A DNA stretch of 64,000 nucleotides from Desulfatiglandales bacterium. Its GTDB lineage: Bacteria; Desulfobacterota; DSM-4660; Desulfatiglandales; Desulfatiglandaceae. The notes under the pieces are model-generated. The model saw only the letters and a program-made list of their open reading frames with translations. It did no database searches and was not told the DNA's origin. The translations under genes and the position numbers were made by a program. Location: NCBI GenBank assembly GCA_963662465.1, contig OY759599.1, positions 4,352,001 through 4,416,000 of the forward strand, written 5' to 3'. Below are positions 46,252 to 64,000 of this stretch, in pieces. Position 1 is the first letter of the stretch, and each line of letters begins with the position of its first letter.

Positions 46252-47132
46252 AATTGGGTCGCTTTCTTGAGTTCCAGTGCTTGTTTTTCTATCTTTTTCA
46301 CCCAGGTTTTGAGCGTTTGTTTCTTCAACTGATCGCTTTTTGGGTAATGGACATGCGAAACGGTTTTCACCAGACGTTTGAGAACCGCATATACCATTTC
46401 AATATCCTTGAACCATTTGCCTTCCGGTCCATCATGAACTTCTTTGGCTTGTTTAGACTGGGTTCTTTGTTCGAGAACTTTTATGAAAAGGGATGGATTT
46501 TCCAGCATGTGGTCTCGAACAGACCGGTTGCTTTTCTGGTAATGTGCGTAGAAACGGGCCAGTTCCCTTGTGGATAGAGGTTCTTTTTCCAGGTGGGCCA
46601 ACAGTTTTTGTGCGTCTTCACCGTTGGCGCGCGCCAACGGCGCCATGACACGGCTGGCAGCCCAGGTTGAAAGTGAGCCTGCAATCACGGTTCTCAAAAT
46701 ATTTTCCGGCAGGGCTTCAACCAGGTCCAGCCGCCGTTTTACAAAACTCTTGTCGCGCCCTATTCGGGTTGCAATATGGGAGAGGCTGCACCCAAAACGC
46801 CGATGTAATTCCTGAAGTAAAACAGACTGCTCAATGACTTCCCATTGCCGTTCATTGGCCTTGGTTAAAAGCGAAAACATGGCATTTTGTTCGTTTTCTT
46901 TTGAGAATTGGACACATATCCGGTCCTTTCCACAAGCACAAAGCGCTCGAACACGCAGGTAGCCATCAATCAGAATCAGTTTGTCTTTTTCTTCAATAGC
47001 CAGGGCCGGAACGATCTGCCCGTAAGTTTCGATGGAATCCCTCAATCGCTTTAAAGCCTGGTGATTCATTATCCGGCAATGAGCGTAACGCAACTCCAGC
47101 AAATGAATATCAACGGTTCGGATGGATTCCAT
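46248..47132 (-). CDS. ParB-like passenger protein
   Basis: One A/V difference from 20548-21432. Confidence 0.8.
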   Translation of the reverse strand: MESIRTVDIHLLELRYAHCRIMNHQALKRLRDSIETYGQIVPALAIEEKDKLILIDGYLRVRALCACGKDRICVQFSKENEQNAMFSLLTKANERQWEVIEQSVLLQELHRRFGCSLSHIATRIGRDKSFVKRRLDLVEALPENILRTVIAGSLSTWAASRVMAPLARANGEDAQKLLAHLEKEPLSTRELARFYAHYQKSNRSVRDHMLENPSLFIKVLEQRTQSKQAKEVHDGPEGKWFKDIEMVYAVLKRLVKTVSHVHYPKSDQLKKQTLKTWVKKIEKQALELKKATQL

Positions 47133-47529
47133 ACCCAGTCTCCCGAAAGATTTCCTCTATGGTTTCTCCAAGACTGACCCAATTTCCTTGCCGGATCTCC
47201 TTTACCTGTTTCACAATCACAGGACGTCTGGGAAGCGAAAGAACCTGAAACAGACGGCCATCAAACCCAATCAGATCCTTGTCCAACAAGCCATCGCGGG
47301 CATCGATATATTGATCCAAATGCACCTTTAAAATCCGGCAGATTCTGTCGTAACCATAATAAGAGAGCCCGTTTTTGTCAGATACCAACACCAGAAAAAT
47401 GTAGAGCAGCAGCTCATGATGATTCAGGCTCTCCCAAAAGCCGTTTCTCAAAAAACGATGCTCCAGAAAGCCGAAGCTTCCATTGATGACACGCACTCTT
47501 TCGGGAAAAAGGACTCTTTTTTTGATCAT
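47110..47529 (-). CDS. Hypothetical wHTH-like passenger protein
   Basis: Identical to 21410-21829. Confidence 0.55.
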   Translation of the reverse strand: MIKKRVLFPERVRVINGSFGFLEHRFLRNGFWESLNHHELLLYIFLVLVSDKNGLSYYGYDRICRILKVHLDQYIDARDGLLDKDLIGFDGRLFQVLSLPRRPVIVKQVKEIRQGNWVSLGETIEEIFRETGYGIHPNR

Positions 47530-47541
47530 TTTTTTCTCCTG

Positions 47542-47985
47542 TCATGGATATGGGGTTTTCTCAAAGCCTGTTACATCTGAAAAAACCCTCCCTGCATAAG
47601 CACGGCGAGGAAAATGGTCCACAACAACCCCGATCGACCCGCAAAAAAGACAGCTGGGTCGGTTCCCCGACCGCTTTTTGGGTTCAATATCACAGTCTTT
47701 TTGAGGTGTTGAACTATCATCACCAGGGTTCAGTCCATTTTTTTTGGATTTTTTTGTTTTTTCGTACAAACGACGGCGCTCTTTCCCTTTTTTCGAATTG
47801 CGGTATTTCCCCTGAGCTTTCCGGTGCAGCTGTCTTTGGCGTATCCTGCGACATCGTTCCCCACAATAGGCCTGGCCACGCCAACACGACCGACAGACGT
47901 GAAAAAAGCAACCACAACATCGGCATTGAACCACTCTTAAAAGGACATCTCCCATCATTCCGGCCTTGCAATTGGCCGGAAACAC
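47542..47985 (-). CDS. Cys-rich passenger protein
   Basis: Identical to 21842-22285. Confidence 0.6.
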   Translation of the reverse strand: MFPANCKAGMMGDVLLRVVQCRCCGCFFHVCRSCWRGQAYCGERCRRIRQRQLHRKAQGKYRNSKKGKERRRLYEKTKKSKKNGLNPGDDSSTPQKDCDIEPKKRSGNRPSCLFCGSIGVVVDHFPRRAYAGRVFSDVTGFEKTPYP

Positions 47986-48308
47986 ACTTATATAAAATTG
48001 GCGTGTGTGTGGCTTCCGGCTCTATCCGGTGGTCAAAAAAGAAGGCCCGAAGCGGCTACTTCGGGCCTTCACCATCCATTCTACAAAGTAAATCGCATTT
48101 CCACTTAACCAAGCCTCTGTCTTGGAAGAAGAAAACCAAATCCAAAGAAAATAGATTTTATAAAAATTTATTGAAAAGTAAATCTACATCAACGACTCCT
48201 TTGCCGCCACTTATGGATCCCTCATCGTCCGCTATACCTGAGGGCCGTACTCACTGGCGGTGACAGCCAATGGTTCAATTTCCATTAGCAAACTTGGTTC
48301 AGTTTTGA

Positions 48309-49532
48309 TTAGCGTTGAAGAGCAATCTCACGGAGTGTCTCGAAATCGACCTTCGCGTAAATGGCTGTGGAACTCTGGGATTGATGACGGAGAACCTCAG
48401 AGATCTCAGCGATGGAGGCACCCTGGCGGATCATTCTGGTGGCCAGACCGTGGCGGAAGAGATGGGCTGCGCCACGGCTCGGAGCACATATGCCGGCTCG
48501 GGCAAATGCAAGGCGTACAATATGGCCAATCGCCCCTGGGCCGGCCAAGCCAACGCGTGGAGCAATCATTCGCAGAAAAACCCGTCGCGATACGCTATCT
48601 CCTCTGTCTTGACGTAGATAAACCGCTAAAGCATCTCCGACATCTGAGACCAATGGTAGTCGGTCCTGTACTTGGCCCTTGCCGCGAATAACGATCTCCC
48701 CGATCCGCCAGAGGATGTCACCGAGTTCTATCGTGATTATCTCTCCCGCACGCAGACCGAGTCGTGCAAGAAGAAGCAAAATGGCATAATCGCGTCTTCC
48801 ACGTGGCGTCGACAGATCGGTTGACGAAAGGATCCTTTCTACCTGGTCGGGGGTTAGAAAGCCAATTACCTCGGACTGATGCCATTTACGGACTCTGGGA
48901 ATCGATAGGGAAAAATCAATTGTTATTTCTTTGCGAAGGTAAAGAAACCGCAAGAATGATCGGAGGGCGGCGGCCAGAAGCCTCGAGTATTCTCTCGACC
49001 GGTTTTGAATGCGATCGAGGAGGAAATTTTGGATTGTCAGGGCATCCAATGCATGGAAAGAGATGCAACCGGTTTGGGCTAACCGATCATTGAGAAAATC
49101 ACTGATGAAAGGCGAATAAACAAGAATTGAGTTTTCGGCGAGTCCTCGCTCCTTTCGCAGGTATTCTATGTAGGTCCGCTTAAAATCATCCACGGGTGAA
49201 GCATCAAGTATTGGAGGATTTGGAACCACACCTTCTTGGCGCAGATAGCTGAGAAAAAGCCGCAGGGCAGCCATTTCGAATTTTATCCGGGCTTTTTGCC
49301 TTTTGTGCAAACGCTCCACGAATTCGGTCAGATGGGATTCGTTTAGATCGTTTACAGTAAGCCGCTTCCCCACTGTCCATCGGGCAAAAGAGGCAGCAAC
49401 TGGACGCTTTTTCCGTAGCGTCCGTTCTGCATACCCCAGAGTGCGAAGGTGTGATAGGAAGGAGTTGACATGGGTTTGACATAGGTTCGAATGCGGGTTG
49501 TTTTTCGATACGAAATTACTGAATGTTTTCAT
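48309..49532 (-). CDS. Tyrosine recombinase (RitA-like); last 10 codons displaced by IS21
   Basis: LGLRAGE, GKG, HLFRHG, VLRH, TAIY; native tail PPWPGQGGVR* lies at 43556-43588. Confidence 0.88.
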   Translation of the reverse strand: MKTFSNFVSKNNPHSNLCQTHVNSFLSHLRTLGYAERTLRKKRPVAASFARWTVGKRLTVNDLNESHLTEFVERLHKRQKARIKFEMAALRLFLSYLRQEGVVPNPPILDASPVDDFKRTYIEYLRKERGLAENSILVYSPFISDFLNDRLAQTGCISFHALDALTIQNFLLDRIQNRSREYSRLLAAALRSFLRFLYLRKEITIDFSLSIPRVRKWHQSEVIGFLTPDQVERILSSTDLSTPRGRRDYAILLLLARLGLRAGEIITIELGDILWRIGEIVIRGKGQVQDRLPLVSDVGDALAVYLRQDRGDSVSRRVFLRMIAPRVGLAGPGAIGHIVRLAFARAGICAPSRGAAHLFRHGLATRMIRQGASIAEISEVLRHQSQSSTAIYAKVDFETLREIALQR

Positions 49533-50029
49533 GTGGTCTCTCCTTTCGTTTGGCGGGATTGCCAAACCGAAGATCCCACAAAAATTATGCCGCGTCAGCA
49601 ACTACTTCAAGGCACGAATAATCCCACAAAATTCTTGTAATGCGGCATAATCCGGGAGTCGGCATTACATCTGCGAAAGGGCTTTGAAAAAGGCCATTCT
49701 TCACAGAAAAAACTCCCTGTTTTACAAAACAGAGCATGGCGCCCTCATTGGAGACATCTTTATGAGCCTTATTCAGACCTGTGCCATGAACGGAGAAAAT
49801 CCGTACGAATATCTCCTGGCCATTCACAAAAATCCCGAGCTGGTAAAAGTAAACCCCGAAAACTGGCTTCCCTGGAATTACAGGCAAAATCTAAATTCCC
49901 AGCCTTAGTAACTCACAGATAATCAGATCGACAGAAGACGCCGGATAACGGAGCTCGCCACCTAGCGTCTTCCGGCCACCCAAAAAAAAATGAAAAAATT
50001 TGCCCTATGCAGGCTTGCAGAAAGGACAC

Positions 50030-50098
50030 GATCAACGGCACAAACAGGCGGGTCCATGTTCCTCTGTTTGTGCAGCACCGTAGACCAGTTTGTTCGAA
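50030..50098 (-). other. Truncated attC abutting the probable IS66 end
   Basis: Minus-strand TTCGAAC just after the stop at 50108, then a GCACAAACAG/CTGTTTGTGC stem; distal boxes missing. Confidence 0.5.
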
Positions 50099-50107
50099 TC
50101 GATTTCA

Positions 50108-50335
50108 TTAAGCTTGGGCTTTATTTATGCGCTCTGCAATCCAGCTTTTGATTACGGATTGCGTCGCGATTCCAAGCCGCTTCGCTTCGCGATCGAGCAA
50201 TTCGATCATCCAGACCGGGAAGTCTACATTGATCCGCTTGTACTCGTGACCCGGACGGGTAGCCTTGGAGAAGTCGAGGTATTTGTCGACGTCTTCTCCA
50301 TCGTCAAACTTTTTGTCAAACTCCTTAGTCTTCAT
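50108..50335 (-). CDS. CopG/BrnA-type antitoxin
   Basis: EFDKKFDDGEDV, RINVDFPVWM, SVIKSWIAER. Confidence 0.8.
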   Translation of the reverse strand: MKTKEFDKKFDDGEDVDKYLDFSKATRPGHEYKRINVDFPVWMIELLDREAKRLGIATQSVIKSWIAERINKAQA

Positions 50336-51089
50336 ATCGTTCTATCTCCTTCGTACGTGAACGCCGGACGGAGATGATCCTTATTCTATCGCCGCGCGGT
50401 GTGAAAATCGCCGACCAATGCCTACTTCCGATTCGTCCGATCAACATGTAACGCGGTTCGCCTTGCGTGCGGGCAGGGACTTGCAGACGTTCTGGGTCCT
50501 CCCAGAGGGCTTGGGCCTCAACGAAGTTTATGTTCAAACCAGCACACTTTTCACGAAGTTCTTTCAGCGCCAGGTGTTGACTGTGACCCTCCCGAAATCC
50601 ATGGGAAACGTCATAAAACAAGGGCTCGTAAACCAGCCCCAGCAAAGCCGCCACCGCCTTCTGGACAATCTTGTCTTCCAGCGCCGGAATCCCTATCGGT
50701 CTCTTTTTACCGCCTTCCTTGTCCACCCATATGCGCTTGACCGGTGATGCAACGTACTGCCCTCTTCGCAGCCGTTCGTACAGTTTATAGAGGTTTTCAT
50801 TAAGATCGGCGGCATAGGTCTTCGCCGTTATCTTGTCAACTCCGGTCGACTCATTCTTACTCAAGCCCTTGAATGACTTTTTCAATAAATCAAAGTCTAT
50901 CCAATGCGCAAGTGATGTGAACACCGTTTGTGGATCGGCCATCCCCCGTATTGCTACCCGGGCAAGACTTGATTCACCGACCAGTACGGGGAGACCATGT
51001 GTACTCGGTTCTTCGGACTTCTGAGCAACCTGCTCCGCAATTTCCTGATTTTCCATTGATATGGGTTGTGACCTCTGAGTGTCTTCCAT
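50325..51089 (-). pseudogene. Chimeric ORF: N-terminal part of a group II intron RT fused in frame to the C-terminus of a BrnT toxin
   Basis: FTSLAHWID...GVD...RPIGIPALEDKIVQ...SHGFR...LNIN, then FVEAQALWEDP...RIRIISVRRSR; no YADD. Confidence 0.85.
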
Positions 51090-52137
51090 AGTTCCTATCA
51101 GAAAAACGTTATACCCTGCTTCACCTTCCCTACAGTGGGTCGCCTGGGCGTAACTTCCCCACCTTCCCGGCACCATCCTCGGCGCCATCGGTACTATGTT
51201 CCGCTAAGACTGCCAAAAGTCCCTCTCAAGCGCGTTCGCTTTTCGCTGTCCACACCTGATACCCTGTCTGCTTTCTTTCTTTGTGTTTCTTGCGACTCGT
51301 TTGCGGGTGAAAGCCTCCCGCTAACACCGGGGCTCTTGATCTCCCGGTACCCCTTGTCTTCCGGGTGTTTACACAAGGAGACTTTTGGCTCTCCCGAGTT
51401 CCCGAGCTATCCATTTGAATCCATGCCCTGGTCGTCGGGTAGAAATACGGCGCGCTCACCCTTAGGCAGAGAGTTTCCGTCTTGCACCCTTTCGGTTGTG
51501 CAGCGGGTTCCTAGTTCCGCCATAGCCAACGTTTCCGCAAGCCCCCCTCTCATCCCGGACGGTCGGATTTCCCGAGTCCGGTTGGCGGCCAGTGGTCTTC
51601 ATGTATTATCTCCGATACGCCTTCCCATATTACCGGAGGCTTAAGTACACGCCCACATACACCCCTCACTAATATGGTTTACTTATCGGATAGCCCGAGG
51701 CTCCGTTGACCAACTTTTACGGGCTCTGCGTCCCTTGTTTGGTGTCTTCCTTCCGGGCGACCACTGTACCGAGAGCCCCTTTGCCTTATCAGGGTATTAC
51801 CCCTCAAAGCGTCGCATTTACTGCGACATAGGCTGACATTACTCAACTCTCTTCGCTCATACGGGCTCATGCGCCGGACCAAACCCCTCTTGCTGCCTCG
51901 GCTTGTCACCTTGTGCAACACGTCTTCGCAGGTTGCTGCGTGCCCCTGCTGGGAGATGGCCCTTCCCGACGTTATCTCCTTAATCTTTATATGGGTGCCT
52001 GGACCCGTACCCCGCCGCGCTTCTCCGGTGCATTTGCTCGTTTCTTCCCGGAAAACATCGGCCTCACCTCAGTCTTAACAGGTTCGGCGCGCTGAAACCC
52101 CCACCGCATAGCAACTTCTACGATGGCCACCTTTTTC

Positions 52138-54143
52138 CGCATAAGTCTAAATGTTGTGGGGTTGTATAACCCATCAAAATTAAAAGGCGTTTTCGGTAAA
52201 CAAGAATGCATTATGAACATTCATAACTTGAATCCAAGGTAAGTCAAATGTTTGGCCGTTGGCTAATTCAAAGGGACTTTTATGAGCATTTTTTGCGCCA
52301 GGTAAAAATGGGACAAAATTCCTGATAGTCGCATGTGCTCGAAAGAAAAGACTTGCCCATTTCTTATCTCGAAAACTCTCAATTTGTTTTAGTTTACGTT
52401 TGATTCCTTTTAAATAATTGTCAACAATGGAGGTTGTTTGTTTTATCCCATTTCTATTTTTATGAGAGGTATAATGAGTGGCATTTTCTTTTAATTCTAC
52501 TACCCTCTTTTTTAGTAATGGATGAGAAAATGCATCGTCATCTAATGCCTTAATCTTTACTTCCAAGTTAACTTTAGATGTGGATGTTTTCAAAACTTTC
52601 TTAAATTTTTTATAAAGCTTGTCCACTTCTTGGTCGGTACATTTTGATTCTTTTTGATATTTTGATAGTGCATCGTAGAAGTTTTTCAAACAATGACGAT
52701 GGCAATATCCGACCCAAATGTTATGGAATACGGTCTTGATAGCATTGGTTGAGGCTTTCCACTTATCTTTTGTTACACCAAGGATTTTGAAGTCGATTTT
52801 TTGCAAAAAATCCTCAAATGAACCGCACAGGTTTTCTTCATCAACATGATCAACATAATCGGAGTGCCATACTAATAAATTTTCAGGATCGACCATAACT
52901 ACAGAATAAGTTCTTAAATTTGGTTCTTTTTCAAAGCCCTCATCTTCCTGTAGATATCCTGAGCCTTTCACTCCTGCTCTTGTTAGTATTGTTGCAGGAT
53001 GAAGTGTTCCTGCCCATCGATTCCAGTTCAAGATGGTCTGTTTGCTTTTGACACTTTTTTTGCCAATAATTTTAAGGCTTTCGATGGCTCCTTGAATGCT
53101 CGCATTAAAACGGTACATATTCCGAAATACGTGCCCAATAATCTCTATACCAAAATTCTTTTCCCTTGGGAGAAAGCTGGGAACAAGAGAGAACTTTTGT
53201 TTGCACTTCCGGCATTGTATCATGCGGATTGGGAATGTCTGTTGTTCTCCTCCATTCATTATTGTTTTTCGAGGATTCCCGCGGAAACCAGATAAAATAT
53301 ATTCTTTAGGTCCAGAACATGTTGAATTATGGCCTGTGTGGTGATCATATTTATCGAGTTTATCTAATACTTCAATGCGAAACTTCTTACTATCTTTTAC
53401 GAGAGCATGATAGCTTTCGGTGTTATTATAAGGAAAGATATATGTTTGATTTCCTCGTTTAGAAACAAGGTCTTCCATTTTCTTTTTTACATTTTCGATT
53501 ATGGATTTATCAAAAGATTTTAACATCCCTATCTCAAATGCAATACTGATTGTACTATCACGACTTTTTACATTATTCAATTTTTTAGTAATATTACTTA
53601 TCATTGAACGAATTGAATAAAAGATTCTAATTTTCTGTCGATCCCGTTGTGTTTTTGGAATGCTTTTTTTCCCTTTTATTGGCTTACAAATATCCCATAA
53701 TTGACTTATTAACCTACCAAGTTCATCAATAAGAGCAGACAATGTTACATAAAAATATTGCAATGATTGAAACATCTCCCTTTCATTGATCCATGATCTG
53801 ATGGCATTAATGCATTTCTCAATTTCAAAGAAAATCTCAGGATACTGTTTTGGATCGTAATAACATTGTCTTGCAAGTCTGTTTTGAGCTTTGTCCAACA
53901 TTGTCAAAGCTCTCTTAATATTATTAATCATGTGCAACCTCTCTAATTTAACATAGACTGTTGCACTATGATTATGCACACTTATCAAAAAAAGTCCCTA
54001 ACTTTTTTCCGCTAAGGCGAATTCAGGAAAAAATGTTTGGCCTCACGAAATGCGCTTTGATTAGGATATTGATTCTGAACCGTTTAACAGATGAAATAAT
54101 TTCAATATGTTAGAGTAAACCCCACAACATTTAGACTTATGCG
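52138..54143 (-). mobile_element. 2006-bp IS, copy with TSD
   Basis: Same 26-bp IRs; 8-bp TSD CCTTTTTC at 52130-52137 and 54144-54151. Confidence 0.93.
52180..53988 (-). CDS. Putative Mutator-like transposase
   Basis: Same protein as 38003-39811. Confidence 0.7.
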   Translation of the reverse strand: MISVHNHSATVYVKLERLHMINNIKRALTMLDKAQNRLARQCYYDPKQYPEIFFEIEKCINAIRSWINEREMFQSLQYFYVTLSALIDELGRLISQLWDICKPIKGKKSIPKTQRDRQKIRIFYSIRSMISNITKKLNNVKSRDSTISIAFEIGMLKSFDKSIIENVKKKMEDLVSKRGNQTYIFPYNNTESYHALVKDSKKFRIEVLDKLDKYDHHTGHNSTCSGPKEYILSGFRGNPRKTIMNGGEQQTFPIRMIQCRKCKQKFSLVPSFLPREKNFGIEIIGHVFRNMYRFNASIQGAIESLKIIGKKSVKSKQTILNWNRWAGTLHPATILTRAGVKGSGYLQEDEGFEKEPNLRTYSVVMVDPENLLVWHSDYVDHVDEENLCGSFEDFLQKIDFKILGVTKDKWKASTNAIKTVFHNIWVGYCHRHCLKNFYDALSKYQKESKCTDQEVDKLYKKFKKVLKTSTSKVNLEVKIKALDDDAFSHPLLKKRVVELKENATHYTSHKNRNGIKQTTSIVDNYLKGIKRKLKQIESFRDKKWASLFFRAHATIRNFVPFLPGAKNAHKSPFELANGQTFDLPWIQVMNVHNAFLFTENAF

Positions 54144-54706
54144 CCTTTTTCGAGGCTGCAGTCATTCCTTTATGTTCAAGCTCCCATACTTGCTAGGCCC
54201 CCAGGTTGCACCCACCGCTGGAGATCAACTTCTCCAGGGCGGCCGGGCCGTTTACACCACGCAATGGACATGAGGTTACCCTTCATGAACTGTGGTATCG
54301 CTACACACTCGAATCGAGCAATTAGTATGACGGAACTTTCACCCGCTAGATTAAGGCCTTGTCGGCCGCTACCTAAGACCCCGGTGGCAACCTCAACACT
54401 CGCCATGGCGCATCAAGGTTTGCTGCCTTCCGCTTGCTCCAAAGCGTCGGCTTTCTCCCACATTTGTAGGATTATCCAATGACCACAACTATACATTTTT
54501 CGGGGCTCAATACACGTCCTGGATTCTCGTTCCGTCCAGCTCCATACGCCGGTTACCCGGTTTGCACGTGGACTTCACTACCGAACTGGTGGCTAACCTT
54601 TGCTCGGGTGGGACTTTCGCTTTCCGCGATCACCCACTGGATAACAATAACCAATTTCATCCCGATTTACGCGGGTTCCCAAGGTTTCGGGCTTACCTCG
54701 GCGCGA

Positions 54707-54723
54707 GCAGCGTTTGCTTCGCC
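54707..54723 (-). other. Half attC, 5' exon of the class E-like intron
   Basis: + strand GCAGCGTTTGCTTCGCC versus intact attC arm GCAGCGTTTGGTTCGCA at 58145-58161. Confidence 0.65.
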
Positions 54724-55089
54724 ACTGTGGACGATCCTAAGTATACGGAATTTCGGCGAAAACAACTGCACCTTTCCAGATTGATAATGCCTTATTTTCT
54801 TTGGGAACTCGGTTTGATTTTCGTGTTTCCACGAAATGCCTTAGGATCATATCAATTTCGAATTCCCACCATTAAATGAAAAAAACTTCCTTTTTGATTC
54901 TCCCCCGCACTTCAGGTTGCTTTTATGTTTTTGTCATTCCTTTCTTAGATGCTGGGTACATTCTTACCTACTGGGGACATCCTTTTCTTTGTAAATGGGT
55001 TAGATTATGTCCTAAATTTTGACCGTCCTTATAAGGCAATCGACTGAAATTTCAGTGAAAGATGTCGTCGCAAAAGAGTTGCGCCCATT

Positions 55090-55464
55090 TCAAATAACAG
55101 CTTTAAACTCTATTTTTTCATCTCCAAATGTCGATTCAACCACTTTATGCATCCCATGTCCGGGATTTCGCTCTTTGAAGGTTTTAATCAACTGGTATTT
55201 AGACAATAATTTCAAATCATTATTGAGACTTACAGGTGTACGCTGCATTACCGACATAAGTTCAGAGAATATGACTTTTTTCTTTTTCCTCAAATATTGG
55301 ATCAGCTTGGTTCTCTCTGGTTTTAGTATGGCCATTAAGTCTGAAGGAGCAACCCATATTATATTTTTTGGAGTTAATTTACGGCCCTCATCAATTTCTT
55401 TTGCTGTTTCTTTTGCTGAAACAAAAAAATCAGAAAGATCCCCTGTCTTTATCTCGAGCGTCAT
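55090..55464 (-). CDS. HTH antitoxin-like protein (HVO_A0114-like)
   Basis: DLMAILKPERTKLI...SEL...R...SLNNDLKLL, NPGHG; coupled to the upstream gene. Confidence 0.65.
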   Translation of the reverse strand: MTLEIKTGDLSDFFVSAKETAKEIDEGRKLTPKNIIWVAPSDLMAILKPERTKLIQYLRKKKKVIFSELMSVMQRTPVSLNNDLKLLSKYQLIKTFKERNPGHGMHKVVESTFGDEKIEFKAVI

Positions 55465-55778
55465 TTTATGAACTCCCTTACTTCTTTTTCAAATCTTTCT
55501 ACAAGTTCCCGATAACTTATAAATTTTTCAACCTCAGATATTTCTCCAAAGTAGTGCTTATGGTGGAAATTATGAGTATTGTCATAGCCTAAAACCCTGC
55601 CATTATCTCCAGAGAAAATAAGATGATTGATATAGGCCATGCTGTATTTTACTATTTCGCCCTGTTCATTCTCCCATGCATCAATTTTGACAAGTCCTCC
55701 CCCTCTTTTGGGATTTATGGAGAATTGTTCAGATACAACTTTTTTGAACTTGGTTTTGCCCGTTCGTTTGGATTTCAT
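55461..55778 (-). CDS. DUF6516/TumE-like putative toxin
   Basis: KYSMAY, RVLGYDNTH..HHKH. Confidence 0.65.
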   Translation of the reverse strand: MKSKRTGKTKFKKVVSEQFSINPKRGGGLVKIDAWENEQGEIVKYSMAYINHLIFSGDNGRVLGYDNTHNFHHKHYFGEISEVEKFISYRELVERFEKEVREFIK

Positions 55779-55849: not shown

Positions 55850-58075
55850 GTCGAGTAGCCAGGGGATGTTGCCATCCCCCAGCCCTCTAAGAACCGTGCG
55901 TGCGCCGTTAAACGCACACGGCTCAAGCATTCCAAAGGCAAGCCCTTTCGGGGCTACCCGGTTGTGACGTTTTATGCTCTTTACGCCTGTCTGCCTTCTG
56001 CTGACTGCGTTGGGCATATCGTTTCCTGAAATAGTGTTCATATTTCGGATCGAAGGGGTTCGCATCCCCTCGAATTTTGACATGGCGTTTTATCTTGACG
56101 TCGTAAGCTTTCTCAAGTTCAATTCTAGCGGATTTCGCATAGCCGTCCTTGATCACCGCTGAAAAGGACCACGGACGAGATCCTTTTGACCAGTATTTAT
56201 CCACCAGCCAACTCTTACTCTTGCCCGAATGTTTCCTCCTCATCCATTGCCAAATATAGCTGTAGATACGGTGATCTACAAGCCCGAAAGTTCTACCGGA
56301 AACCACATGCCTGTGGTAATTGGCCCATCCCCTGATTTTGGGATTGAGCACTTTAATCAGGGTGTCGGCTCTTGATGCCGCATGCTTTCGGATCGTTTGC
56401 CGGATATTGCCTAAGAAGGCTTTCACGTTTTTACGAGAGGGCTTTATCAAGAGCTTCCCCTGGTATTTGCGTGGATTCTGTCCGAGAAAATCAAATCCTT
56501 CTTCTATCCTTGTGATCAACGTCTTTTCCGCTGAAAGCGAAAGTCCTCTTCGCTCCATAAATGCTTCAATTTCCAGCTTGATCTCATTTAGCATCTCTCT
56601 GGAATTCCCGGTGATGATGAAATCATCAGCGTAACGGATTACGTTTATCTTGGACCGTATATTGCCCTGGATTCTTATCGGGGCGGTACTTTTGGCTGCC
56701 GCTTCCAGACCATCCAGGACCATATTAGCCAATGTTGGAGAGATAATCCCGCCTTGCGGGGTTCCTCTGTAAGTCGGATAGAGCTTGCCTCCTTCCACAT
56801 AACCGGATTTCAGCCATTTCTGAAGCGTCCGTTTATCCATGGGGATATTTTCGAGCATCCATTGATGGCTGATTTCGTCAAAACAGGCCTTTATGTCTCC
56901 CTCCAAAATCCATGCGGGTGAGTAGCTCTTGGCCAGAGAAATAAAACAATGACCGATGGCATCCGCACATCCTCGATAGGCTCTGAACCCATAAGAGTTC
57001 GGATCGGCGGTGGTTTCCGCCACCGGATCAAGGGCCAGTTTGTGCAACGCCTGCATGGCTCTGTCTTTCATGGTGGGAATGCCCAATGGGCGTTTCTTGC
57101 CGTTTTTCTTGGGTATGTAAATTCGGCGCAGCGGTTTGGGTCGGTAAGTTCTTCGGTGCAGGTCTTTTGCCGCCTGCATTTTGTCAATGTGGGTGGACCA
57201 TATAACTTTATCCACTCCCGGCGTGCGTTTACCTCGGTTGGAAGTAACGCGCTTGATGGCCAACAACTTGGCATAAAACGAATGGGTCAAAAGCCATTGT
57301 ATTGCCTTAACCTTTCCCCATCGCTTTTCCTTCACAGCCTTTGCGATACGCACCTGCAGTCTTCTAACGTGCTCGCCGGCGGTTCTCCAGTTTATGGATT
57401 TCCACCAGTTTGTTCCGTCCAAAGGTGCACCAGTCGCCAAAATGGCCACCGTCATTTGCTTTCCCCTGTTTGAAGATTCTACAAATTATCTCGCAATGGA
57501 ACACCGGTCAGAAGTCTGCTCTCTTTCGAGCCGGATCATGTAGGTGATTACACCGTCAATCCGTATCCCCATCATTACAACGGGGCATTTGCTTTTTTCT
57601 GACATCCTTTACCCGCAACCCCATGGGCTCACCTTGCGGTTCGCTTTCCCCGTGGGGAGGATTACGGGCTTACCATGTTCCGCGTAAGTACCCGAGCAGG
57701 TTAGGTTCCGCCCGTACGCCGGTGGCACGACATCCGCGATGGAGGAGTTCGCAGCCCCCATACCTGGCCACATACCGTTTGGTCCAAGCCTTTCAGCATC
57801 TTAGGCTTGTTCTCGTGACGACGCTGCAGCGATTCACATGTGTTAACCATACTGCTCAATTCTAGCTCCCTTACCGCATGATGCTTGCAGAGTTGAGGTC
57901 TCCTCACGGTTCCCTCTCCCGGAAGATTCCGCGGGCTTCATTGTCCCGAGAGCTTCACACCCCCGGATTACTCCGGACGCATGTCCCGGTAGAATACCTG
58001 TTGCAGAAAACAGGGTTTTGTTATATGGTTTATATCAATATACAAAACAGCTACTTACGCGACATCACGTCGCAC
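55850..58075 (-). mobile_element. Complete group II intron (CL-like), 2226 nt
   Basis: 5' GTGCGACG; DV GAGCCGTGTGCGTTTAACGGCGCACGCACGGTTC; DVI ending CTACTCGAC. Confidence 0.92.
55923..57455 (-). CDS. ltrA: Group II intron reverse transcriptase/maturase, no HNH domain evident
   Basis: WKSINW N-terminal domain, RPLGIPT, GDIKACFD, GTPQGG, RYADD, GFDFLG, IRGWANY. Confidence 0.93.
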   Translation of the reverse strand: MTVAILATGAPLDGTNWWKSINWRTAGEHVRRLQVRIAKAVKEKRWGKVKAIQWLLTHSFYAKLLAIKRVTSNRGKRTPGVDKVIWSTHIDKMQAAKDLHRRTYRPKPLRRIYIPKKNGKKRPLGIPTMKDRAMQALHKLALDPVAETTADPNSYGFRAYRGCADAIGHCFISLAKSYSPAWILEGDIKACFDEISHQWMLENIPMDKRTLQKWLKSGYVEGGKLYPTYRGTPQGGIISPTLANMVLDGLEAAAKSTAPIRIQGNIRSKINVIRYADDFIITGNSREMLNEIKLEIEAFMERRGLSLSAEKTLITRIEEGFDFLGQNPRKYQGKLLIKPSRKNVKAFLGNIRQTIRKHAASRADTLIKVLNPKIRGWANYHRHVVSGRTFGLVDHRIYSYIWQWMRRKHSGKSKSWLVDKYWSKGSRPWSFSAVIKDGYAKSARIELEKAYDVKIKRHVKIRGDANPFDPKYEHYFRKRYAQRSQQKADRRKEHKTSQPGSPERACLWNA

Positions 58076-58161
58076 GCGAACGACAAGCTCACCAGCGCCT
58101 CCTCCGGGCCCCCGCCGGAACCGCCCAAGTATCAGGCGTCTGGTGCAGCGTTTGGTTCGCA
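58076..58161 (-). other. attC site; R' box split by the intron
   Basis: + strand GCGAAC-gaca-AGCTCACCAG-CGCC ... GGCG-t-CTGGTG(C)AGCG-tttg-GTTCGCA. Confidence 0.8.
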
Positions 58162-58582
58162 ATTCCAACGGCATATATGAGTAGTGCGGGCTTTATTCAA
58201 AGCCAACAATCGATTTATGAAGGCATAAAAACGCTTATGGCTTCTTCACTGGCGTGCCTTCAGTGTGGTCCCCTTAGTTTCTACGATTACTTAAAAGCAT
58301 GTTTTTGGCTTCAAAAAGGTGCTTCTAAGAATTAAAAACACCGTTTTTTTTAAGTCAAACTAATGAATTCATGTCTATCTTCTTGGTCCGACCCCAGATC
58401 TCAATTTCCGTTCCCTTTTGTCGCAAATGTCTTTTCCATCCCTATCCGGTTCCTGCACACAATGGGCCGTTGTACCAGCGAGATCTCAACTATCGTCAGT
58501 GATTTAAATCTCAACCTATGACAACACCTGTTTTTCACGCCGATGCTTTCGAAATGTCGCGAAAAAGACGTATAATGCTGAA

Positions 58583-59992
58583 TTATCGGGGAACCACAGT
58601 TACACTCGGCTGTAATTTTATGGACCCACCACCTGTGGATACAGGACTGTAAATCTGGCTCGTTCCGTTGTGATCTGCGAAAGAATTTTTCCATCCGCCG
58701 CTGATGGTAACCATTCCAGCCTTTTTCCAATCAGGAGCTTCTGAATAAGTACCATCTGCGACCTTGATAAGTGAACCATCTTCAGCCGCTTCTAGAGCAA
58801 GATTAATCGTTTGATAGCAAGGTTCTTGACCACATTGTCCATGGTTATCGACATACAATAATGTTCCGGATTGTTTAGTACGAACTGGCCACACGTAGTA
58901 GTCATCGGACTTATCGTGGTCGTTCACGATGCCGTAGTCCATGATCACGACCCACGCGGCGTCGGTATGGTGCGCATTGGTAGTGGACGACCAGTAGTCT
59001 CCAGACTGAACATTTGCAAAGGGATGGCCCGCCGGTAGCGCAAGGGAATATTGAGAGAAATCCGTCAGGCTGAGAAGCTCCTTCCGGTTTGGCAATCGCC
59101 AGTCCGTGTAGCCGGCCGCATAGTCCCCGCATGTATAGCTCCCCGGATTGACGTTCAAGTCTGCCACCTTGGCCAAGGCGGTCTGCCAGGACATAGACCC
59201 AAAACAGTTGGCATCCTTGAGCCACATCAGTCCCGTCAGGTTGTCCGTCACCGTACCGTCCCCATTGTCGGCAAGCCGGGGGTCGGGCCAGCCCACGCCT
59301 CTTTGCAAAGCGCCGTCATCTCCGACTCCATAGCTCTGGGTCTGCCCGGTTTTCCACACGGCTGCCAGCGGGATTTTTGCGGCGCGAACCGCCCATACAT
59401 AGCTGCTGATGGACTTATTGTAGCCCTCCATGAACCCGTTGGCCATGTATATGCCCCACGCGTACCCGGTATCGTTTGCGTAGGTAGTTGATGACCAGTA
59501 ACTGAAAGACTGAACGTCCGAAAAACCGCTCAAATTCAACCAACTTCCCGAATCGTCAACTGCCGCGTTGTATAGGCTTTGCAATTCATTGACATTGGGA
59601 AGTGCCCAGTCTGAATAAGTCCCTGTGTAGCCGCCGCATGTATAACTCCCCGGATTGGCGTTCAAGTCTGTCACTTTGTCCAGGGCGGCCTGCCAGGTCA
59701 GAGACCCAAGACAATCGGCGTCTTTGAGCCACATCAATCCACTCAAATTATCGGTAATCGTCCCATCGCCATTGTCCGTGAAGCGAGGATTGGGCCAGGC
59801 CGCACCTGCTTGAATATCTCCATCTTGGCCGGTTCCGGCGCAAGGAATTACGTTGCCCCCCTCATCGTAGCATGTGATTTGGCCTGTTTTCGGAAGATCT
59901 ACCGTGCCTGCAAATAAAGTGTTCGCAGTCAGAAACAATGAACCCATGGCTAACATCACCAACACAAAAAACCTTAACTCTTTTCTCATCAC
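58583..59992 (-). CDS. Secreted protein with tandem DUF1566 (Lcl-type C-lectin fold) domains
   Basis: GGAGG RBS, signal peptide, two copies of KTGQ...DNGDGTxTDNLxGLMW...W.LPN..EL...YWSSTT...VW.VR. Confidence 0.88.
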   Translation of the reverse strand: MMRKELRFFVLVMLAMGSLFLTANTLFAGTVDLPKTGQITCYDEGGNVIPCAGTGQDGDIQAGAAWPNPRFTDNGDGTITDNLSGLMWLKDADCLGSLTWQAALDKVTDLNANPGSYTCGGYTGTYSDWALPNVNELQSLYNAAVDDSGSWLNLSGFSDVQSFSYWSSTTYANDTGYAWGIYMANGFMEGYNKSISSYVWAVRAAKIPLAAVWKTGQTQSYGVGDDGALQRGVGWPDPRLADNGDGTVTDNLTGLMWLKDANCFGSMSWQTALAKVADLNVNPGSYTCGDYAAGYTDWRLPNRKELLSLTDFSQYSLALPAGHPFANVQSGDYWSSTTNAHHTDAAWVVIMDYGIVNDHDKSDDYYVWPVRTKQSGTLLYVDNHGQCGQEPCYQTINLALEAAEDGSLIKVADGTYSEAPDWKKAGMVTISGGWKNSFADHNGTSQIYSPVSTGGGSIKLQPSVTVVPR

Positions 59993-60350
59993 ATTAGTAC
60001 CTCCTTGTCAAAATTTGAACGGATTATCAAAAAAATAGAAATCGTATATGTGCACTGGCGCAAGAAAAAACGGACAAAAAAAAATCCTAATTCCCCTACA
60101 CCTCCTGAAGGTGAACATCAGCAGGGGTGACCCCACCCAGTGTCGGCCGGGGAAACTGGAAATTACTCAAGTGAACCGTTTCCCCTAATGCCAGGTGGAC
60201 GCGTTCAACATATGCCTTATGGGAAGCTGCATATATTAGAGCATCAAAACCTTATCATTTGCCTATGGTGCCAAACATGTGAGCCTGCCATTTTGTTTCC
60301 TCTTGTCTCCTAAGAAGACAGCATAAAACCTGACGCAATGTCCTCTTGCA

Positions 60351-60481
60351 CGCGAACGTTTAGTTAACTGGAAAACGGGTTCAAAAAAATATATTATCAT
60401 TCCAGCTGGTGACTTCGTAGGAACCAACGCATTTCGGTTTATCTCCCAATACCAGTTTTCCAGTTCAACGGGGTGTTGGAC
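60351..60481 (-). other. attC site of IS91-like cassette copy 1
   Basis: Minus strand GTCCAAC ... GTT(G)AACTGGAAAAC ... GTTTTCCAGTTAAC ... GTTCGCG. Confidence 0.8.
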
Positions 60482-60722
60482 AGAGCCGCGGGTCATCAGC
60501 ACATACTTTGCCGGAAGCAGGAGATCGGCTATGGAGATTAAGGGAGCTTCTCAGCTGTCGCGTGACCTCTTTTTAACCCGTCATGGCCGGTTAAGGATGA
60601 TAAAATTCCTGCTTTCAATTGCATGATCCGTCAAAAACCCTGAAATATCGCGTTATTTATCCCTTTACCAAACGCCTCGCCATTCAAGTGCCTTTTTGAA
60701 TATGCTCATGTTTATTATCGTT

Positions 60723-61922
60723 TTACGCTGCCTGTGCATATACCGTATCCGGGTCCTTATTGAACCTCGGAAGACTTTTTGACTTTCTTACCGGTGCAAC
60801 TATTTTCAACGTAATAAGACGTTTCCCGCAAACTGGGCAACAATCCGGTTGCTCGTCGCTTCGCTGCTGCCACAGACTCTGCCAGTCCAGAAATTCCGTA
60901 TCTTCAAGTGCCGGTTGTCCCAGTATTTCCCGGCAGCGTGCCAGTTCTTTTTTTGCGTTGTGATGGTAAAGGCCGTATGAACGCACCATCATGGAATTCG
61001 CCAGGGGAACGTGTTGCAGGTAGCGGCCGATAAAGGTTTGAATCGGCAAGGTAATGAGTCTTACCCGCTCACGACCGTAATTGAAGGTGACGTTTCCGTT
61101 TTCAATGCGGAAGATGCGTTTATTTGAGATCGGTCCGCCTCTCAGATACCGGGCCAGGTAAATTAAGACCCCTTCTCCGTATGAATAGGTCTCCTTGAGT
61201 TTAACGTTCCACTTCTTACGGCGCCCCAACTTATTAAACAGGTTTCGCGCCTGCTGCGGTCCCATGCCTTCGGGCAGAATCAGTTCTTCACGGGCAAGGG
61301 CTTTTCTCAAATAGTGGAGATATTTTCCTCGAAAAACCGCCCGGACAATGCCAAACGGCAGAAGAAACGTTTTTGATGAAGCAATCCACTCGCCGGCGGA
61401 CAGACCACCGGCCGTCACCAAACAATGCAAATGGGGATGAAAATCCAATTTTCGGCTCCAGGTATGCAACGAGGCAATGATGCCGACTTTGGCCCCCAAA
61501 TGCTTCGGGTCTCCAAGGAGTTCGGAAAGGGTCTCGGTCGCGCTTTTGAACAGCAGATTAGCCATGACTTTACGGTTCAGCCGCCATAAGTCATGCAATT
61601 CATCGGAGATGGTGAAAATAACGTGGAAATGCTCGGCACTCAGGAGTCGGGCCTTTTGTTTCGCCAGCCACCGCTCAACCTGGGTGAAGGCGCAGAGTGG
61701 GCACATACGGTGTTTACACGAGTTATACCAGACCCTCTGGAAGTGACCATCCGGACATGCCTGGACGTGCCCCCCCAGAATGGACGTGCGGCAGGACATC
61801 AGACGATGAGCCGCCTCACGAATATGTTCCGGAAGACAATGCGTCTGATTATAGAGGGCATAGCCAAGAAGAAAGATGCCCTGAATCGTCGTTTCCACTG
61901 CGATTTCACCTATTTCTACCAA
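60723..61922 (-). CDS. IS91-family (Y2 HUH) transposase with N-terminal Zn-binding domain
   Basis: CRT..LGG, YNSCKHRMCPLC, HVIFT, LHTW...FHPHLHCLVTAGG, YLARYLRGGPIS. Confidence 0.9.
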   Translation of the reverse strand: MVEIGEIAVETTIQGIFLLGYALYNQTHCLPEHIREAAHRLMSCRTSILGGHVQACPDGHFQRVWYNSCKHRMCPLCAFTQVERWLAKQKARLLSAEHFHVIFTISDELHDLWRLNRKVMANLLFKSATETLSELLGDPKHLGAKVGIIASLHTWSRKLDFHPHLHCLVTAGGLSAGEWIASSKTFLLPFGIVRAVFRGKYLHYLRKALAREELILPEGMGPQQARNLFNKLGRRKKWNVKLKETYSYGEGVLIYLARYLRGGPISNKRIFRIENGNVTFNYGRERVRLITLPIQTFIGRYLQHVPLANSMMVRSYGLYHHNAKKELARCREILGQPALEDTEFLDWQSLWQQRSDEQPDCCPVCGKRLITLKIVAPVRKSKSLPRFNKDPDTVYAQAA

Positions 61923-61959
61923 TTTTCGACGTTAAGTTCCCCCGCTGTCCAGCGGGTCT

Positions 61960-62090
61960 GTCCAACGTTTAGTTAACTGGAAAACGGGTTCAAAAAAATA
62001 TATTATCATTCCAGCTGGTGACTTCGTAGGAACCAACGCATTTCGGTTTATCTCCCAATACCAGTTTTCCAGTTCAACGGGGTGTTGGAC
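61960..62090 (-). other. attC site of IS91-like cassette copy 2
   Basis: Perfect GTCCAAC (RYYYAAC) / GTTGGAC (GTTRRRY) pair. Confidence 0.85.
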
Positions 62091-62331
62091 AGAGCCGCGG
62101 GTCATCAGCACATACTTTGCCGGAAGCAGGAGATCGGCTATGGAGATTAAGGGAGCTTCTCAGCTGTCGCGTGACCTCTTTTTAACCCGTCATGGCCGGT
62201 TAAGGATGATAAAATTCCTGCTTTCAATTGCATGATCCGTCAAAAACCCTGAAATATCGCGTTATTTATCCCTTTACCAAACGCCTCGCCATTCAAGTGC
62301 CTTTTTGAATATGCTCATGTTTATTATCGTT

Positions 62332-63531
62332 TTACGCTGCCTGTGCATATACCGTATCCGGGTCCTTATTGAACCTCGGAAGACTTTTTGACTTTCTTAC
62401 CGGTGCAACTATTTTCAACGTAATAAGACGTTTCCCGCAAACTGGGCAACAATCCGGTTGCTCGTCGCTTCGCTGCTGCCACAGACTCTGCCAGTCCAGA
62501 AATTCCGTATCTTCAAGTGCCGGTTGTCCCAGTATTTCCCGGCAGCGTGCCAGTTCTTTTTTTGCGTTGTGATGGTAAAGGCCGTATGAACGCACCATCA
62601 TGGAATTCGCCAGGGGAACGTGTTGCAGGTAGCGGCCGATAAAGGTTTGAATCGGCAAGGTAATGAGTCTTACCCGCTCACGACCGTAATTGAAGGTGAC
62701 GTTTCCGTTTTCAATGCGGAAGATGCGTTTATTTGAGATCGGTCCGCCTCTCAGATACCGGGCCAGGTAAATTAAGACCCCTTCTCCGTATGAATAGGTC
62801 TCCTTGAGTTTAACGTTCCACTTCTTACGGCGCCCCAACTTATTAAACAGGTTTCGCGCCTGCTGCGGTCCCATGCCTTCGGGCAGAATCAGTTCTTCAC
62901 GGGCAAGGGCTTTTCTCAAATAGTGGAGATATTTTCCTCGAAAAACCGCCCGGACAATGCCAAACGGCAGAAGAAACGTTTTTGATGAAGCAATCCACTC
63001 GCCGGCGGACAGACCACCGGCCGTCACCAAACAATGCAAATGGGGATGAAAATCCAATTTTCGGCTCCAGGTATGCAACGAGGCAATGATGCCGACTTTG
63101 GCCCCCAAATGCTTCGGGTCTCCAAGGAGTTCGGAAAGGGTCTCGGTCGCGCTTTTGAACAGCAGATTAGCCATGACTTTACGGTTCAGCCGCCATAAGT
63201 CATGCAATTCATCGGAGATGGTGAAAATAACGTGGAAATGCTCGGCACTCAGGAGTCGGGCCTTTTGTTTCGCCAGCCACCGCTCAACCTGGGTGAAGGC
63301 GCAGAGTGGGCACATACGGTGTTTACACGAGTTATACCAGACCCTCTGGAAGTGACCATCCGGACATGCCTGGACGTGCCCCCCCAGAATGGACGTGCGG
63401 CAGGACATCAGACGATGAGCCGCCTCACGAATATGTTCCGGAAGACAATGCGTCTGATTATAGAGGGCATAGCCAAGAAGAAAGATGCCCTGAATCGTCG
63501 TTTCCACTGCGATTTCACCTATTTCTACCAA
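62332..63531 (-). CDS. IS91-family transposase, copy 2
   Basis: Identical to 60723-61922. Confidence 0.9.
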   Translation of the reverse strand: MVEIGEIAVETTIQGIFLLGYALYNQTHCLPEHIREAAHRLMSCRTSILGGHVQACPDGHFQRVWYNSCKHRMCPLCAFTQVERWLAKQKARLLSAEHFHVIFTISDELHDLWRLNRKVMANLLFKSATETLSELLGDPKHLGAKVGIIASLHTWSRKLDFHPHLHCLVTAGGLSAGEWIASSKTFLLPFGIVRAVFRGKYLHYLRKALAREELILPEGMGPQQARNLFNKLGRRKKWNVKLKETYSYGEGVLIYLARYLRGGPISNKRIFRIENGNVTFNYGRERVRLITLPIQTFIGRYLQHVPLANSMMVRSYGLYHHNAKKELARCREILGQPALEDTEFLDWQSLWQQRSDEQPDCCPVCGKRLITLKIVAPVRKSKSLPRFNKDPDTVYAQAA

Positions 63532-63568
63532 TTTTCGACGTTAAGTTCCCCCGCTGTCCAGCGGGTCT

Positions 63569-63699
63569 GTCCAACGTTTAGTTAACTGGAAAACGGGTTC
63601 AAAAAAATATATTATCATTCCAGCTGGTGACTTCGTAGGAACCAACGCATTTCGGTTTATCTCCCAATACCAGTTTTCCAGTTCAACGGGGTGTTGGAC
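63569..63699 (-). other. attC site of IS91-like cassette copy 3
   Basis: Same sequence as 61960-62090; the gene's 3' end begins at 63941. Confidence 0.85.
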
Positions 63700-64000
63700 A
63701 GAGCCGCGGGTCATCAGCACATACTTTGCCGGAAGCAGGAGATCGGCTATGGAGATTAAGGGAGCTTCTCAGCTGTCGCGTGACCTCTTTTTAACCCGTC
63801 ATGGCCGGTTAAGGATGATAAAATTCCTGCTTTCAATTGCATGATCCGTCAAAAACCCTGAAATATCGCGTTATTTATCCCTTTACCAAACGCCTCGCCA
63901 TTCAAGTGCCTTTTTGAATATGCTCATGTTTATTATCGTTTTACGCTGCCTGTGCATATACCGTATCCGGGTCCTTATTGAACCTCGGAAGACTTTTTGA

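Follow-up and report, generated by a model that had tools for sequence, protein, structure and literature searches.

We analysed a 64,000-nt stretch of the genome of a Desulfatiglandales bacterium (GenBank assembly GCA_963662465.1, contig OY759599.1, positions 4,352,001 to 4,416,000), referred to below as the window. One end of it is occupied by a tandemly repeated 1609-bp unit that encodes an IS91-family HUH transposase and terminates in an integron attC site. The source genome (G000) is a single contig of 8.16 Mb, and the whole contig was used beyond the window. The element and its immediate surroundings comprise the following features (window coordinates unless marked G000):

60358–61966, minus strand: cassette unit, copy 8 of the eight when numbered from attI and the closest to the older array; its 1609 bp begin at the G of GTTGGAC and stop one base short of the following GTT
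61967–63575, minus strand: cassette unit, copy 7 of 8, identical to copy 8
63576–64000, minus strand: 3' part of cassette unit copy 6 of 8; the array continues to window-equivalent 73229
60723–61898, minus strand: IS91-family HUH (Y2) transposase gene, 391 aa from GTG or 399 aa from a TTG at 61922
62332–63507, minus strand: second copy of the transposase gene, in an identical unit
61941–61966 and, second copy, 63550–63575, plus strand: terIS-type end, consisting of the bottom-strand hairpin CCCGCTG-TC-CAGCGGG (61941–61956), TCT, GTCC (61960–61963) and AAC
60529–60539, with copies at 62138–62148 and 63747–63757, minus strand: oriIS-like core AATCTCCATAG, 54 nt before the AAC of R''
60475–60489, plus strand: R''-side arm of a 15-nt inverted repeat, giving circles and tandems a longer attC R stem
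60351–60481, minus strand: attC of the last unit, with R'' GTCCAAC, L'' GTT-G-AACTGG (extrahelical G at 60466), L' at 60363–60376, and R' GTTCGCG from the next cassette
61960–62090, minus strand: attC at a tandem junction, R' being the GTTGGAC of the next copy
63569–63699, minus strand: attC at the next tandem junction, R' again being the GTTGGAC of the next copy
58082–60357, minus strand: ordinary cassette next to the array, with an Lcl_C/DUF1566-type protein (58583–59992) and an attC at 58075–58161; single copy, used as depth control
G000 4425408–4426355, plus strand: intI, divergent, beyond the attI of the array (TIGR02249, 445.6 bits)

The repeat has a period of 1609 bp and is perfect from window position 60355 to window-equivalent 73229 (G000 4412355–4425229), giving 8.00 identical copies, of which the window alone contains 2.3. 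The eight units lie head to tail directly after the attI of the intact intI, and on the minus strand the unit starts with GTTGGAC (61966–61960). In three kin integrons (L253–L255) the homologous attI runs into other cassettes at the same GTT, and the crossover point at attI is therefore fixed. Two further near-identical unit copies (100% and 99.3%) reside elsewhere in G000. In assembled contigs the depth of the unit relative to the single-copy neighbour was 350.7/33.6 = 10.4 in run X1 and 424.4/43.9 = 9.7 in run X2, in agreement with the 10 near-identical copies in the assembled genome; one copy at this locus would give a ratio of about 3. X1 and X2 represent one sample, possibly the assembly's own, and contig depth is no strict copy number. 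Run X3 covered the stretch in pieces, and run X4 had the neighbouring cassette without the element. The eightfold repeat is confirmed as real and is larger than the window shows.

A palindrome of 131 nt is present at each of the three window sites. Its order is R''-L''-L'-R' with a foldable bottom strand, and its geometry is that of an attC site: a 5-nt spacer, 3 bp, an extrahelical G, an 11-bp stem, a 5-nt spacer and GTT. Sites were called with a home-made geometry scan and a covariance model trained on 15 ordinary attC sites, none from the element's family. The model scores the window sites at 28.4–28.8 bits (E 4–6e-6) on the correct strand; two class 1 attC sites that were not used for training score 19.1 and 21.2 bits. 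When the 139-nt stretch was folded alone its stability did not exceed that of shuffled sequences (z −0.1 to −0.9), and folding energy was therefore not used as evidence for attC.

The element has the placement of a cassette, with G|TT boundaries, array orientation and a position at attI or following an attC. In seven complete non-tandem junctions of G000 the 3' GTT is followed by GGCG, ATGT, GTGG, CTCG (n = 2) and CGCG (n = 2), and 32 sites of relatives show 24 forms of these four bases, with GAAC only at two tandem junctions. The flanks vary freely, and the bottom-strand target tetranucleotide of IS91 elements (CTTG, GTTC or GTCC) does not mark the insertions. Variant junctions are changed in the first base at the 5' side (ATT in three, CTT in one) and after the G at the 3' side (GAT in two, GCT in one), which is the pattern predicted by a G|TT crossover. 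From this site geometry and context we infer that IntI excises and integrates the cassette.

An initial annotation, made from the letters alone, had described a unit starting with GTTGGAC, the hairpin at 61941–61956, one HUH open reading frame (ORF) and a 131-nt attC-shaped palindrome, with G|TT breakpoints and tandem amplification. All of this is borne out: the attC geometry, a covariance model built without the element's family and the transposase profiles identify a true attC cassette with an IS91-family HUH gene, the ends lie at G|TT with variable flanks, and there are 8.00 copies with a contig depth of about 10×. The same annotation took the GTTC abutting the last unit for an IS91 target. 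The GTTC is present on the gene-sense strand, as GTT plus the first base of the next cassette, and it lies at the wrong end for a target; IS1294- and IS801-like targets read GAAC or CAAG in gene sense, so that a gene-sense GTTC is on the wrong strand and is ruled out.

The GTG start of the transposase is likelier than the TTG, with AGGTGA 7 nt upstream. The protein matches PF04986 (E 5e-49), PF14319 (E 2e-24) and NF033538 (IS91 family transposase; 357 bits, cut-off 125), and it has the three parts of an IS91-type enzyme: a Zn-binding domain, the HUH histidines H164/H166 and the two catalytic tyrosines Y255/Y259 (399-aa numbering). All four residues are conserved in each of 27 clade proteins chosen to span the tree described below. 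The ratio of nonsynonymous to synonymous substitution rates (dN/dS) is 0.095–0.13 against 10 relatives that are 74–87% alike, 0.43 against a 99% copy with 7 changes only, and 0.10–0.31 in six other pairs; eight comparisons were saturated. These ratios indicate that the HUH gene is under purifying selection. A search for a related solved structure of the transposase returned none (best E 0.12), and a search of viral contigs returned no relatives of the element. Only 44–68 nt separate the unit start from the start codon, leaving no upstream tyrosine recombinase of the ISShvi3 type. A sigma-70 scan gave best sites with 9 of 12 matches (5 found vs 2.4 expected) and no convincing cassette or junction promoter.

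G000 contains 17 copies of the element at 10 loci, in four variants that are 76–100% alike. All 10 loci are in integron contexts, no copy lies outside one, and all copies face the array direction. Three loci are at the attI of a full-length intI (three of the five TIGR02249 matches over the cut-off), one is at an attI-like site with no intI nearby, four are behind an attC, and at two (G000 3339700 and 3354083) a group II intron separates the copy from its own start. With 150 of 1621 candidates scored, at least 69 further attC matches were counted in the genome. Among 54 ordinary attC-upstream stretches 44 are single, four are double and six belong to one repeat of 7–9 copies, which reads as a reversed intron end. 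Short cassettes and additional integrase-like genes were located as follows:

G000 2362639, 4723456, 3208415 and 3355706, plus strand: short gene-less cassettes of ~203 and 277 bp, no recognisable gene
L230 1549–1340, minus strand: short gene-less cassette whose start resembles terIS, with a degenerate ori core and an attC that is weak
G000 4981289–4982224 (minus strand) and 6133965–6134666 (plus strand): two additional IntI-like genes, each within a longer frame of 490 or 407 aa, respectively, and with no element copy nearby

The four short cassettes of G000 have an element-like start, a degenerate ori core and a weak attC (13.5–16.8 bits), and are without the long repeat. Both 203-bp cassettes follow non-attC sequence, one of them just behind an intI fragment, and the cassette at G000 3355706 entered the attC of a full element at the L'' GTT. 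The 203-bp form occurs in 2 of 209 genomes of the order, G000 counted.

Loci of relatives were collected from genome contigs (31), metagenomes (the best 80 of 256), 301 genomes of the phylum (31 with a match) and plasmids; the closest named records are from Deltaproteobacteria and Thermodesulfobacteriota. The transposase tree holds 112 of 164 loci, the other 52 being duplicates, partial or with broken frames. The element falls into a recombinase-less clade of 45 rows (SH-aLRT, the Shimodaira–Hasegawa-like approximate likelihood ratio test, 94; 95 without the longest row), whose sister clade of 60 rows mostly carries a tyrosine recombinase (support 98), and seven canonical IS91 rows lie outside both. 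The tree does not tell recombinase loss from gain, given the sister position of the two clades and the long branch of the outgroup. In several recombinase-less loci (L085, L086, L088–L090) we observed a small extra ORF directly upstream of the transposase, possibly a passenger gene in some of them. At L045 (2270–5460) a recombinase-less tandem lies directly behind the end hairpin of a recombinase-bearing element, on a contig binned as archaeal (binning as given).

End features were counted in 83 recombinase-less and 64 recombinase-bearing loci, redundant and related ones included. The strict terIS pattern at the 5' end is present in 41 of 59 recombinase-less loci with at least 250 nt upstream, one match (L196) being misplaced and the scan giving false matches in two of seven outgroup loci; it is present in 29 of 41 recombinase-bearing loci. 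GTYCAAC was found in 49/57 and 31/46 loci, and the ori core in 47/57 and 21/46, respectively. Canonical attC geometry occurs in 32 of 44 recombinase-less loci and in 0 of 27 recombinase-bearing ones, the background rate at random AAC being 16/1299. The misses include upstream passenger ORFs, an intron insertion, broken frames and an attC variant with a longer spacer. Of seven further recombinase-less loci, six have their own site matched by the covariance model; none of 12 recombinase-bearing loci does, some of these ending near the locus edge. The terIS and ori-like signals are conserved across proteins down to ~37–55% identity.

The recombinase-bearing sisters have well-defined ends of their own. 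In G220 five copies share an exact common 5' end and five a common 3' end, with differing flanks; to judge from these ends, recombinase-bearing elements also move with GTT-bounded ends. One such element in G229 (L186–L189) has a compensated 4-nt insertion in both repeat arms and AT-type rather than GTT boundaries. In G000 itself, ~400 bp at 139292 (minus strand) with ends of the recombinase-bearing type lie backwards in the R'' of an attC (model match 139286–139345, plus strand).

The IS91-like signals of the element overlap its integron signals. The predicted cut follows the tetranucleotide GTCC at 61960–61963, and the same bases read in gene sense form part of the R' box GTTGGAC. Since the R' box (GTT-GGAC or GTT-GAAC) contains the complement of the tetranucleotide, terIS and R' overlap. 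A subterminal palindrome beside GTTC, GTCC or CTCG is the terIS arrangement of IS91, kept here and in the relatives, and the same geometry is found in the genome's own target-using IS91 family (hairpin-TAA-GTTC-A). That second family (G000 380865–382435 and ~12 other places) has CTTG/GTTC-type targets at most copies. Its layout is opposite to that of IS91, with the ori-type end placed, on the coding strand, upstream of the transposase gene. The ori core of the clade has the consensus CAATCTCCATAG as compared to CAATTTCCTATAC in the oriIS of IS1294. Whereas the oriIS core of IS91 elements is at the very end, the similar core here is ~185 nt inside it. The proposal in the initial annotation that the attC end doubles as an oriIS-like end is not upheld, the IS91 tetranucleotide being at the 5' end in the R' box and the ori-like core internal. 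The complementarity of R'' to the unit start does stand, and extends beyond the 7 nt first noticed to 14 of 15 nt.

This end repeat sets the element apart from ordinary cassettes. The mean number of matches at repeat positions 8–15 is 6.97 of 8 in 34 recombinase-less loci, 6.08 in 25 recombinase-bearing loci and 2.25 in eight ordinary cassettes, and the repeat covaries between lineages, including the compensated insertion in G229. Junctions of circles or tandems are predicted to fold into a complete attC whose R stem is long (p 0.97–1.0 at 14 matched pairs), and the probability of the terIS hairpin is 0. The R box pairs with probability 0.99 in circles and tandems vs 0.00–0.19 in seven integrated single junctions.

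One relative resides in a clinical setting. An element with 37% protein identity is carried in identical form by 11 plasmids, one copy each, as the final cassette of a class 1 integron; in the record inspected it follows aacA4, blaIMP-6 and aadA2. No recombinase is encoded, and its end plan is that of the clade: GTTGAAC with a GC-rich hairpin, a stretch resembling ori, GTTCAAC and an attC that scores 28.4 bits. It belongs to the recombinase-less clade, on a long branch, and its end repeat is shorter. IS91 enzymes can run past terIS into upstream DNA, and this little-noticed cassette, gcISKpn22, behind blaIMP-6 and aadA2 in In722 gains a testable reading. The accessible part of PMC6262049 gives In722 as intI1, aacA4'-3, blaIMP-6, aadA2 and gcISKpn22 (name from INTEGRALL as cited there) and names gcISKpn22 with no mechanism; the corresponding part of PMC12772345 reports forms both with and without it, and that of PMC13207610 brings no further information on it.

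The element is a cassette with a canonical attC, G|TT placement, a selected HUH gene and terIS-like and oriIS-like signals. We favour, at a probability of roughly 0.6, a mechanism in which IntI integrates the cassette while the HUH enzyme copies its bottom strand from circle or tandem junctions. Host IntI would excise the bottom strand as a circle, joining attC to the unit's own start and creating the only complete HUH cut site (GTCC|AAC) beside an ori core. The HUH enzyme would nick this site and drive rolling-circle copying of the bottom strand, which is the strand used by IS91 (PMC13181058) and by IntI (PMC8024014, PMC8876359), as far as the accessible text of these papers goes; that of PMC13181058 also describes a bottom-strand single-stranded circle as the functional IS91 intermediate. 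An integrated single copy has no 3' tetranucleotide and therefore, by the IS91 rule, could not start rolling-circle copying. The 15-nt end repeat would fold the junction into a strong attC for insertion by IntI at attI, where position 1 would give the best expression to a cassette without a clear promoter of its own. Tandem copies would hold ready-made junctions and so yield more circles without excision, and the junction fold, by displacing the terIS hairpin, may favour read-through and multimers. Such feedback would account both for the eightfold array at attI and for the dispersal over 10 loci, and part of the count may come from IntI-only duplication and RecA. The initial annotation had allowed movement by IntI, by the HUH enzyme or by both. 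Its hybrid IS91/integron design is supported, and in place of an either-or-both the data favour a division of labour.

Several observations weigh against this mechanism. The ori-like core is ~185 nt from the predicted cut, as compared to 2–3 nt in IS1294/IS801-like elements. Of 44 recombinase-less loci, 12 do not pass the strict geometry test, in most cases because the spacer is longer or the GTT is altered, and three 132-nt sister attCs in G000 score only 12.6–15.3 bits. Two of the five intI matches over the cut-off in G000 have no element copy nearby, tandem or adjacent copies occur in only 2–3 other loci (L045, L103, L075), and the position-1 habit is not general. None of 13 kin integrons carries the element there, which leaves position-1 enrichment unsupported as a general rule; seven of 34 clade loci (five distinct) have an intI no more than 600 nt upstream, and several more are attI-like by eye. 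R-box pairing is low in ordinary integrated cassettes too (≤0.13 in six of eight) and mixed when these are folded as circles (0.07–0.99); ordinary integrated attC sites pair the R box poorly, so that only the circle side of the folding contrast is special. A free-circle junction is identical to a tandem junction, and the depth of 9.7–10.4 for 10 copies shows no free-circle excess. IntI alone has been shown experimentally to duplicate cassettes into position 1 (PMC8024014, accessible part).

These last two points also speak for a reading in which the tandem and the spread came from IntI copy-and-paste and homologous recombination alone, helped by the long R stem, with a functional and selected HUH enzyme acting at another step, for example in producing the first circle from an integrated copy or in trans on related ends. 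The identity of all eight copies and a junction fold that strongly favours attC agree with such an origin. We nonetheless consider it unlikely: no ordinary cassette exceeds two copies in G000, and terIS and ori-like signals that persist at such low protein identity need an enzyme acting on the ends. An IS91 element that targets attI and attC, in which the HUH enzyme both copies and inserts at folded or GTT sites, the attC is mimicry and IntI is dispensable, would produce the same sequence, as a GTCC|AAC cut and a G|TT crossover coincide if the target has GTT, and IS91 enzymes insert bottom-strand circles unaided (PMC13181058, accessible part). The 3' flank has no target tetranucleotide, however, and the triad at that end is variable behind the G; only the recombinase-less clade shows canonical IntI geometry, and all G000 copies keep the array direction and an integron context. 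A variable 3' flank, with terIS at the other end and an internal ori core, makes HUH-only insertion at IS91-type targets improbable.

Cassettes carry genes of many kinds, and the element could be a passive cassette whose IS91 gene, once captured, no longer acts on it. A dN/dS of ~0.1, the invariant catalytic residues, a single clade with the same ends, and recombinase-bearing sisters with the same end plan and precise multi-copy ends make this very improbable. It is harder still to credit that a multi-copy repeat was misassembled into the tandem, as perfectly identical copies and the want of a single contig spanning the array might suggest, given ratios of 10.4 (X1) and 9.7 (X2) for 10 assembled copies where a single copy at this locus predicts about 3.

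The remainder of the window adds other mobile DNA. A group II intron at 55850–58075 (minus strand; reverse transcriptase at 55923–57455) is inserted in cassette orientation in the attC at 58075–58161, ~6 nt inside its R' core. The older array at 40286–55778 contains many nested elements: IS66 pieces, a three-integrase element split by an IS21-like unit, an inverted-repeat insertion sequence (52138–54143), and TumE-type and BrnT/CopG toxin-antitoxin genes.

To our knowledge, integron cassettes are regarded as passive, non-replicating cargo of IntI. We tentatively raise the possibility of a new mobile-element class, an integron counterpart of the integrative mobile elements exploiting Xer (IMEX): self-replicating cassettes whose HUH-made bottom-strand circles are inserted by IntI, with the HUH-recombinase-hairpin module of the sisters ancestral to IntI/attC. 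The short cassettes without a gene would count as derivatives in the proposed class, and a clinical class 1 integron would hold one of its members. The sister recombinases have no IntI-specific insertion, and in a recombinase tree of 40 rows, a small sampling with an uncertain root, IntI falls among them (support 91/79 and 94/94). The sisters pair the same HUH enzyme and a folded end with a recombinase that groups with IntI, so their module could be an IntI/attC ancestor. If the proposal is true, such a family, widespread and with its own replication initiator at the expression site of chromosomal integrons, would parasitise the integron itself and would naturally supply the single-stranded substrate needed by IntI, and the sister relationship with recombinase-bearing elements makes the origin of IntI/attC approachable by experiment.

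The literature searched holds no account of this architecture or mechanism; most subscription papers, the ISfinder, TnPedia and INTEGRALL pages and supplements were outside its scope. Prior notice appears limited to the database name gcISKpn22 and one sentence in the accessible part of PMC9229058, where ISShvi3 beside an attC is called 'a new gene cassette structure'. The element resembles IS91, IS801, IS1294, IS1294b and ISCR in its HUH/Y2 transposase, a terIS hairpin with tetranucleotide upstream of the gene and an ori-like core downstream. It shares with the IS91 family the absence of a target duplication and a mobile bottom strand, and that family, in the accessible part of PMC13181058, targets CTTG, GTTC and GTCC and has a single palindrome beside the terIS cleavage site. 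Unlike IS91 elements, it has no target tetranucleotide beside its 3' end and inserts at G|TT in integrons, its ori core is internal and followed by the attC, and it has the 15-nt end repeat; canonical IS91/ISCR transposases are 22–28% identical to its own and fall outside the clade.

With the recombinase-bearing sisters the element shares the GTT-tetranucleotide-hairpin start, a CCCATAG core, GTYCAAC, the end repeat and precise GTT-bounded multi-copy ends. The sisters, in contrast, encode their own recombinase, have end hairpins with non-canonical spacers (0/27), and show neither intI nor a strict attC upstream in 11 loci with enough flank. ISShvi3 and ISWz1 are presumably IS91-family elements of this kind with an upstream tyrosine recombinase (names after ISfinder). 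Ordinary cassettes have the same extrahelical-base attC, G|TT crossover, short leader without a clear promoter and position 1 at attI; the element differs from them in a gene that seems to act on its own ends, an end complementarity twice as long and a far higher copy number. CTXphi and IMEX are mechanistic analogues only, with their own HUH initiator, integration by a host tyrosine recombinase and tandem insertions. In the accessible part of PMC4439123, CTXphi relies on RstA and on Xer, insertions from its replicative forms are nearly always multiple and in tandem, and new copies arise by rolling-circle-like replication between tandem copies. The element carries no phage genes and would use host IntI and attI/attC instead of XerCD and dif; its 10 loci in G000 are all at integron sites, with no integration by XerCD at dif. 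It lacks two defining IS91 features, the terminal ori and the target tetranucleotide, and has the cassette features examined. By its sequence, the element appears to work like an IS91-type replication module within an integron cassette.

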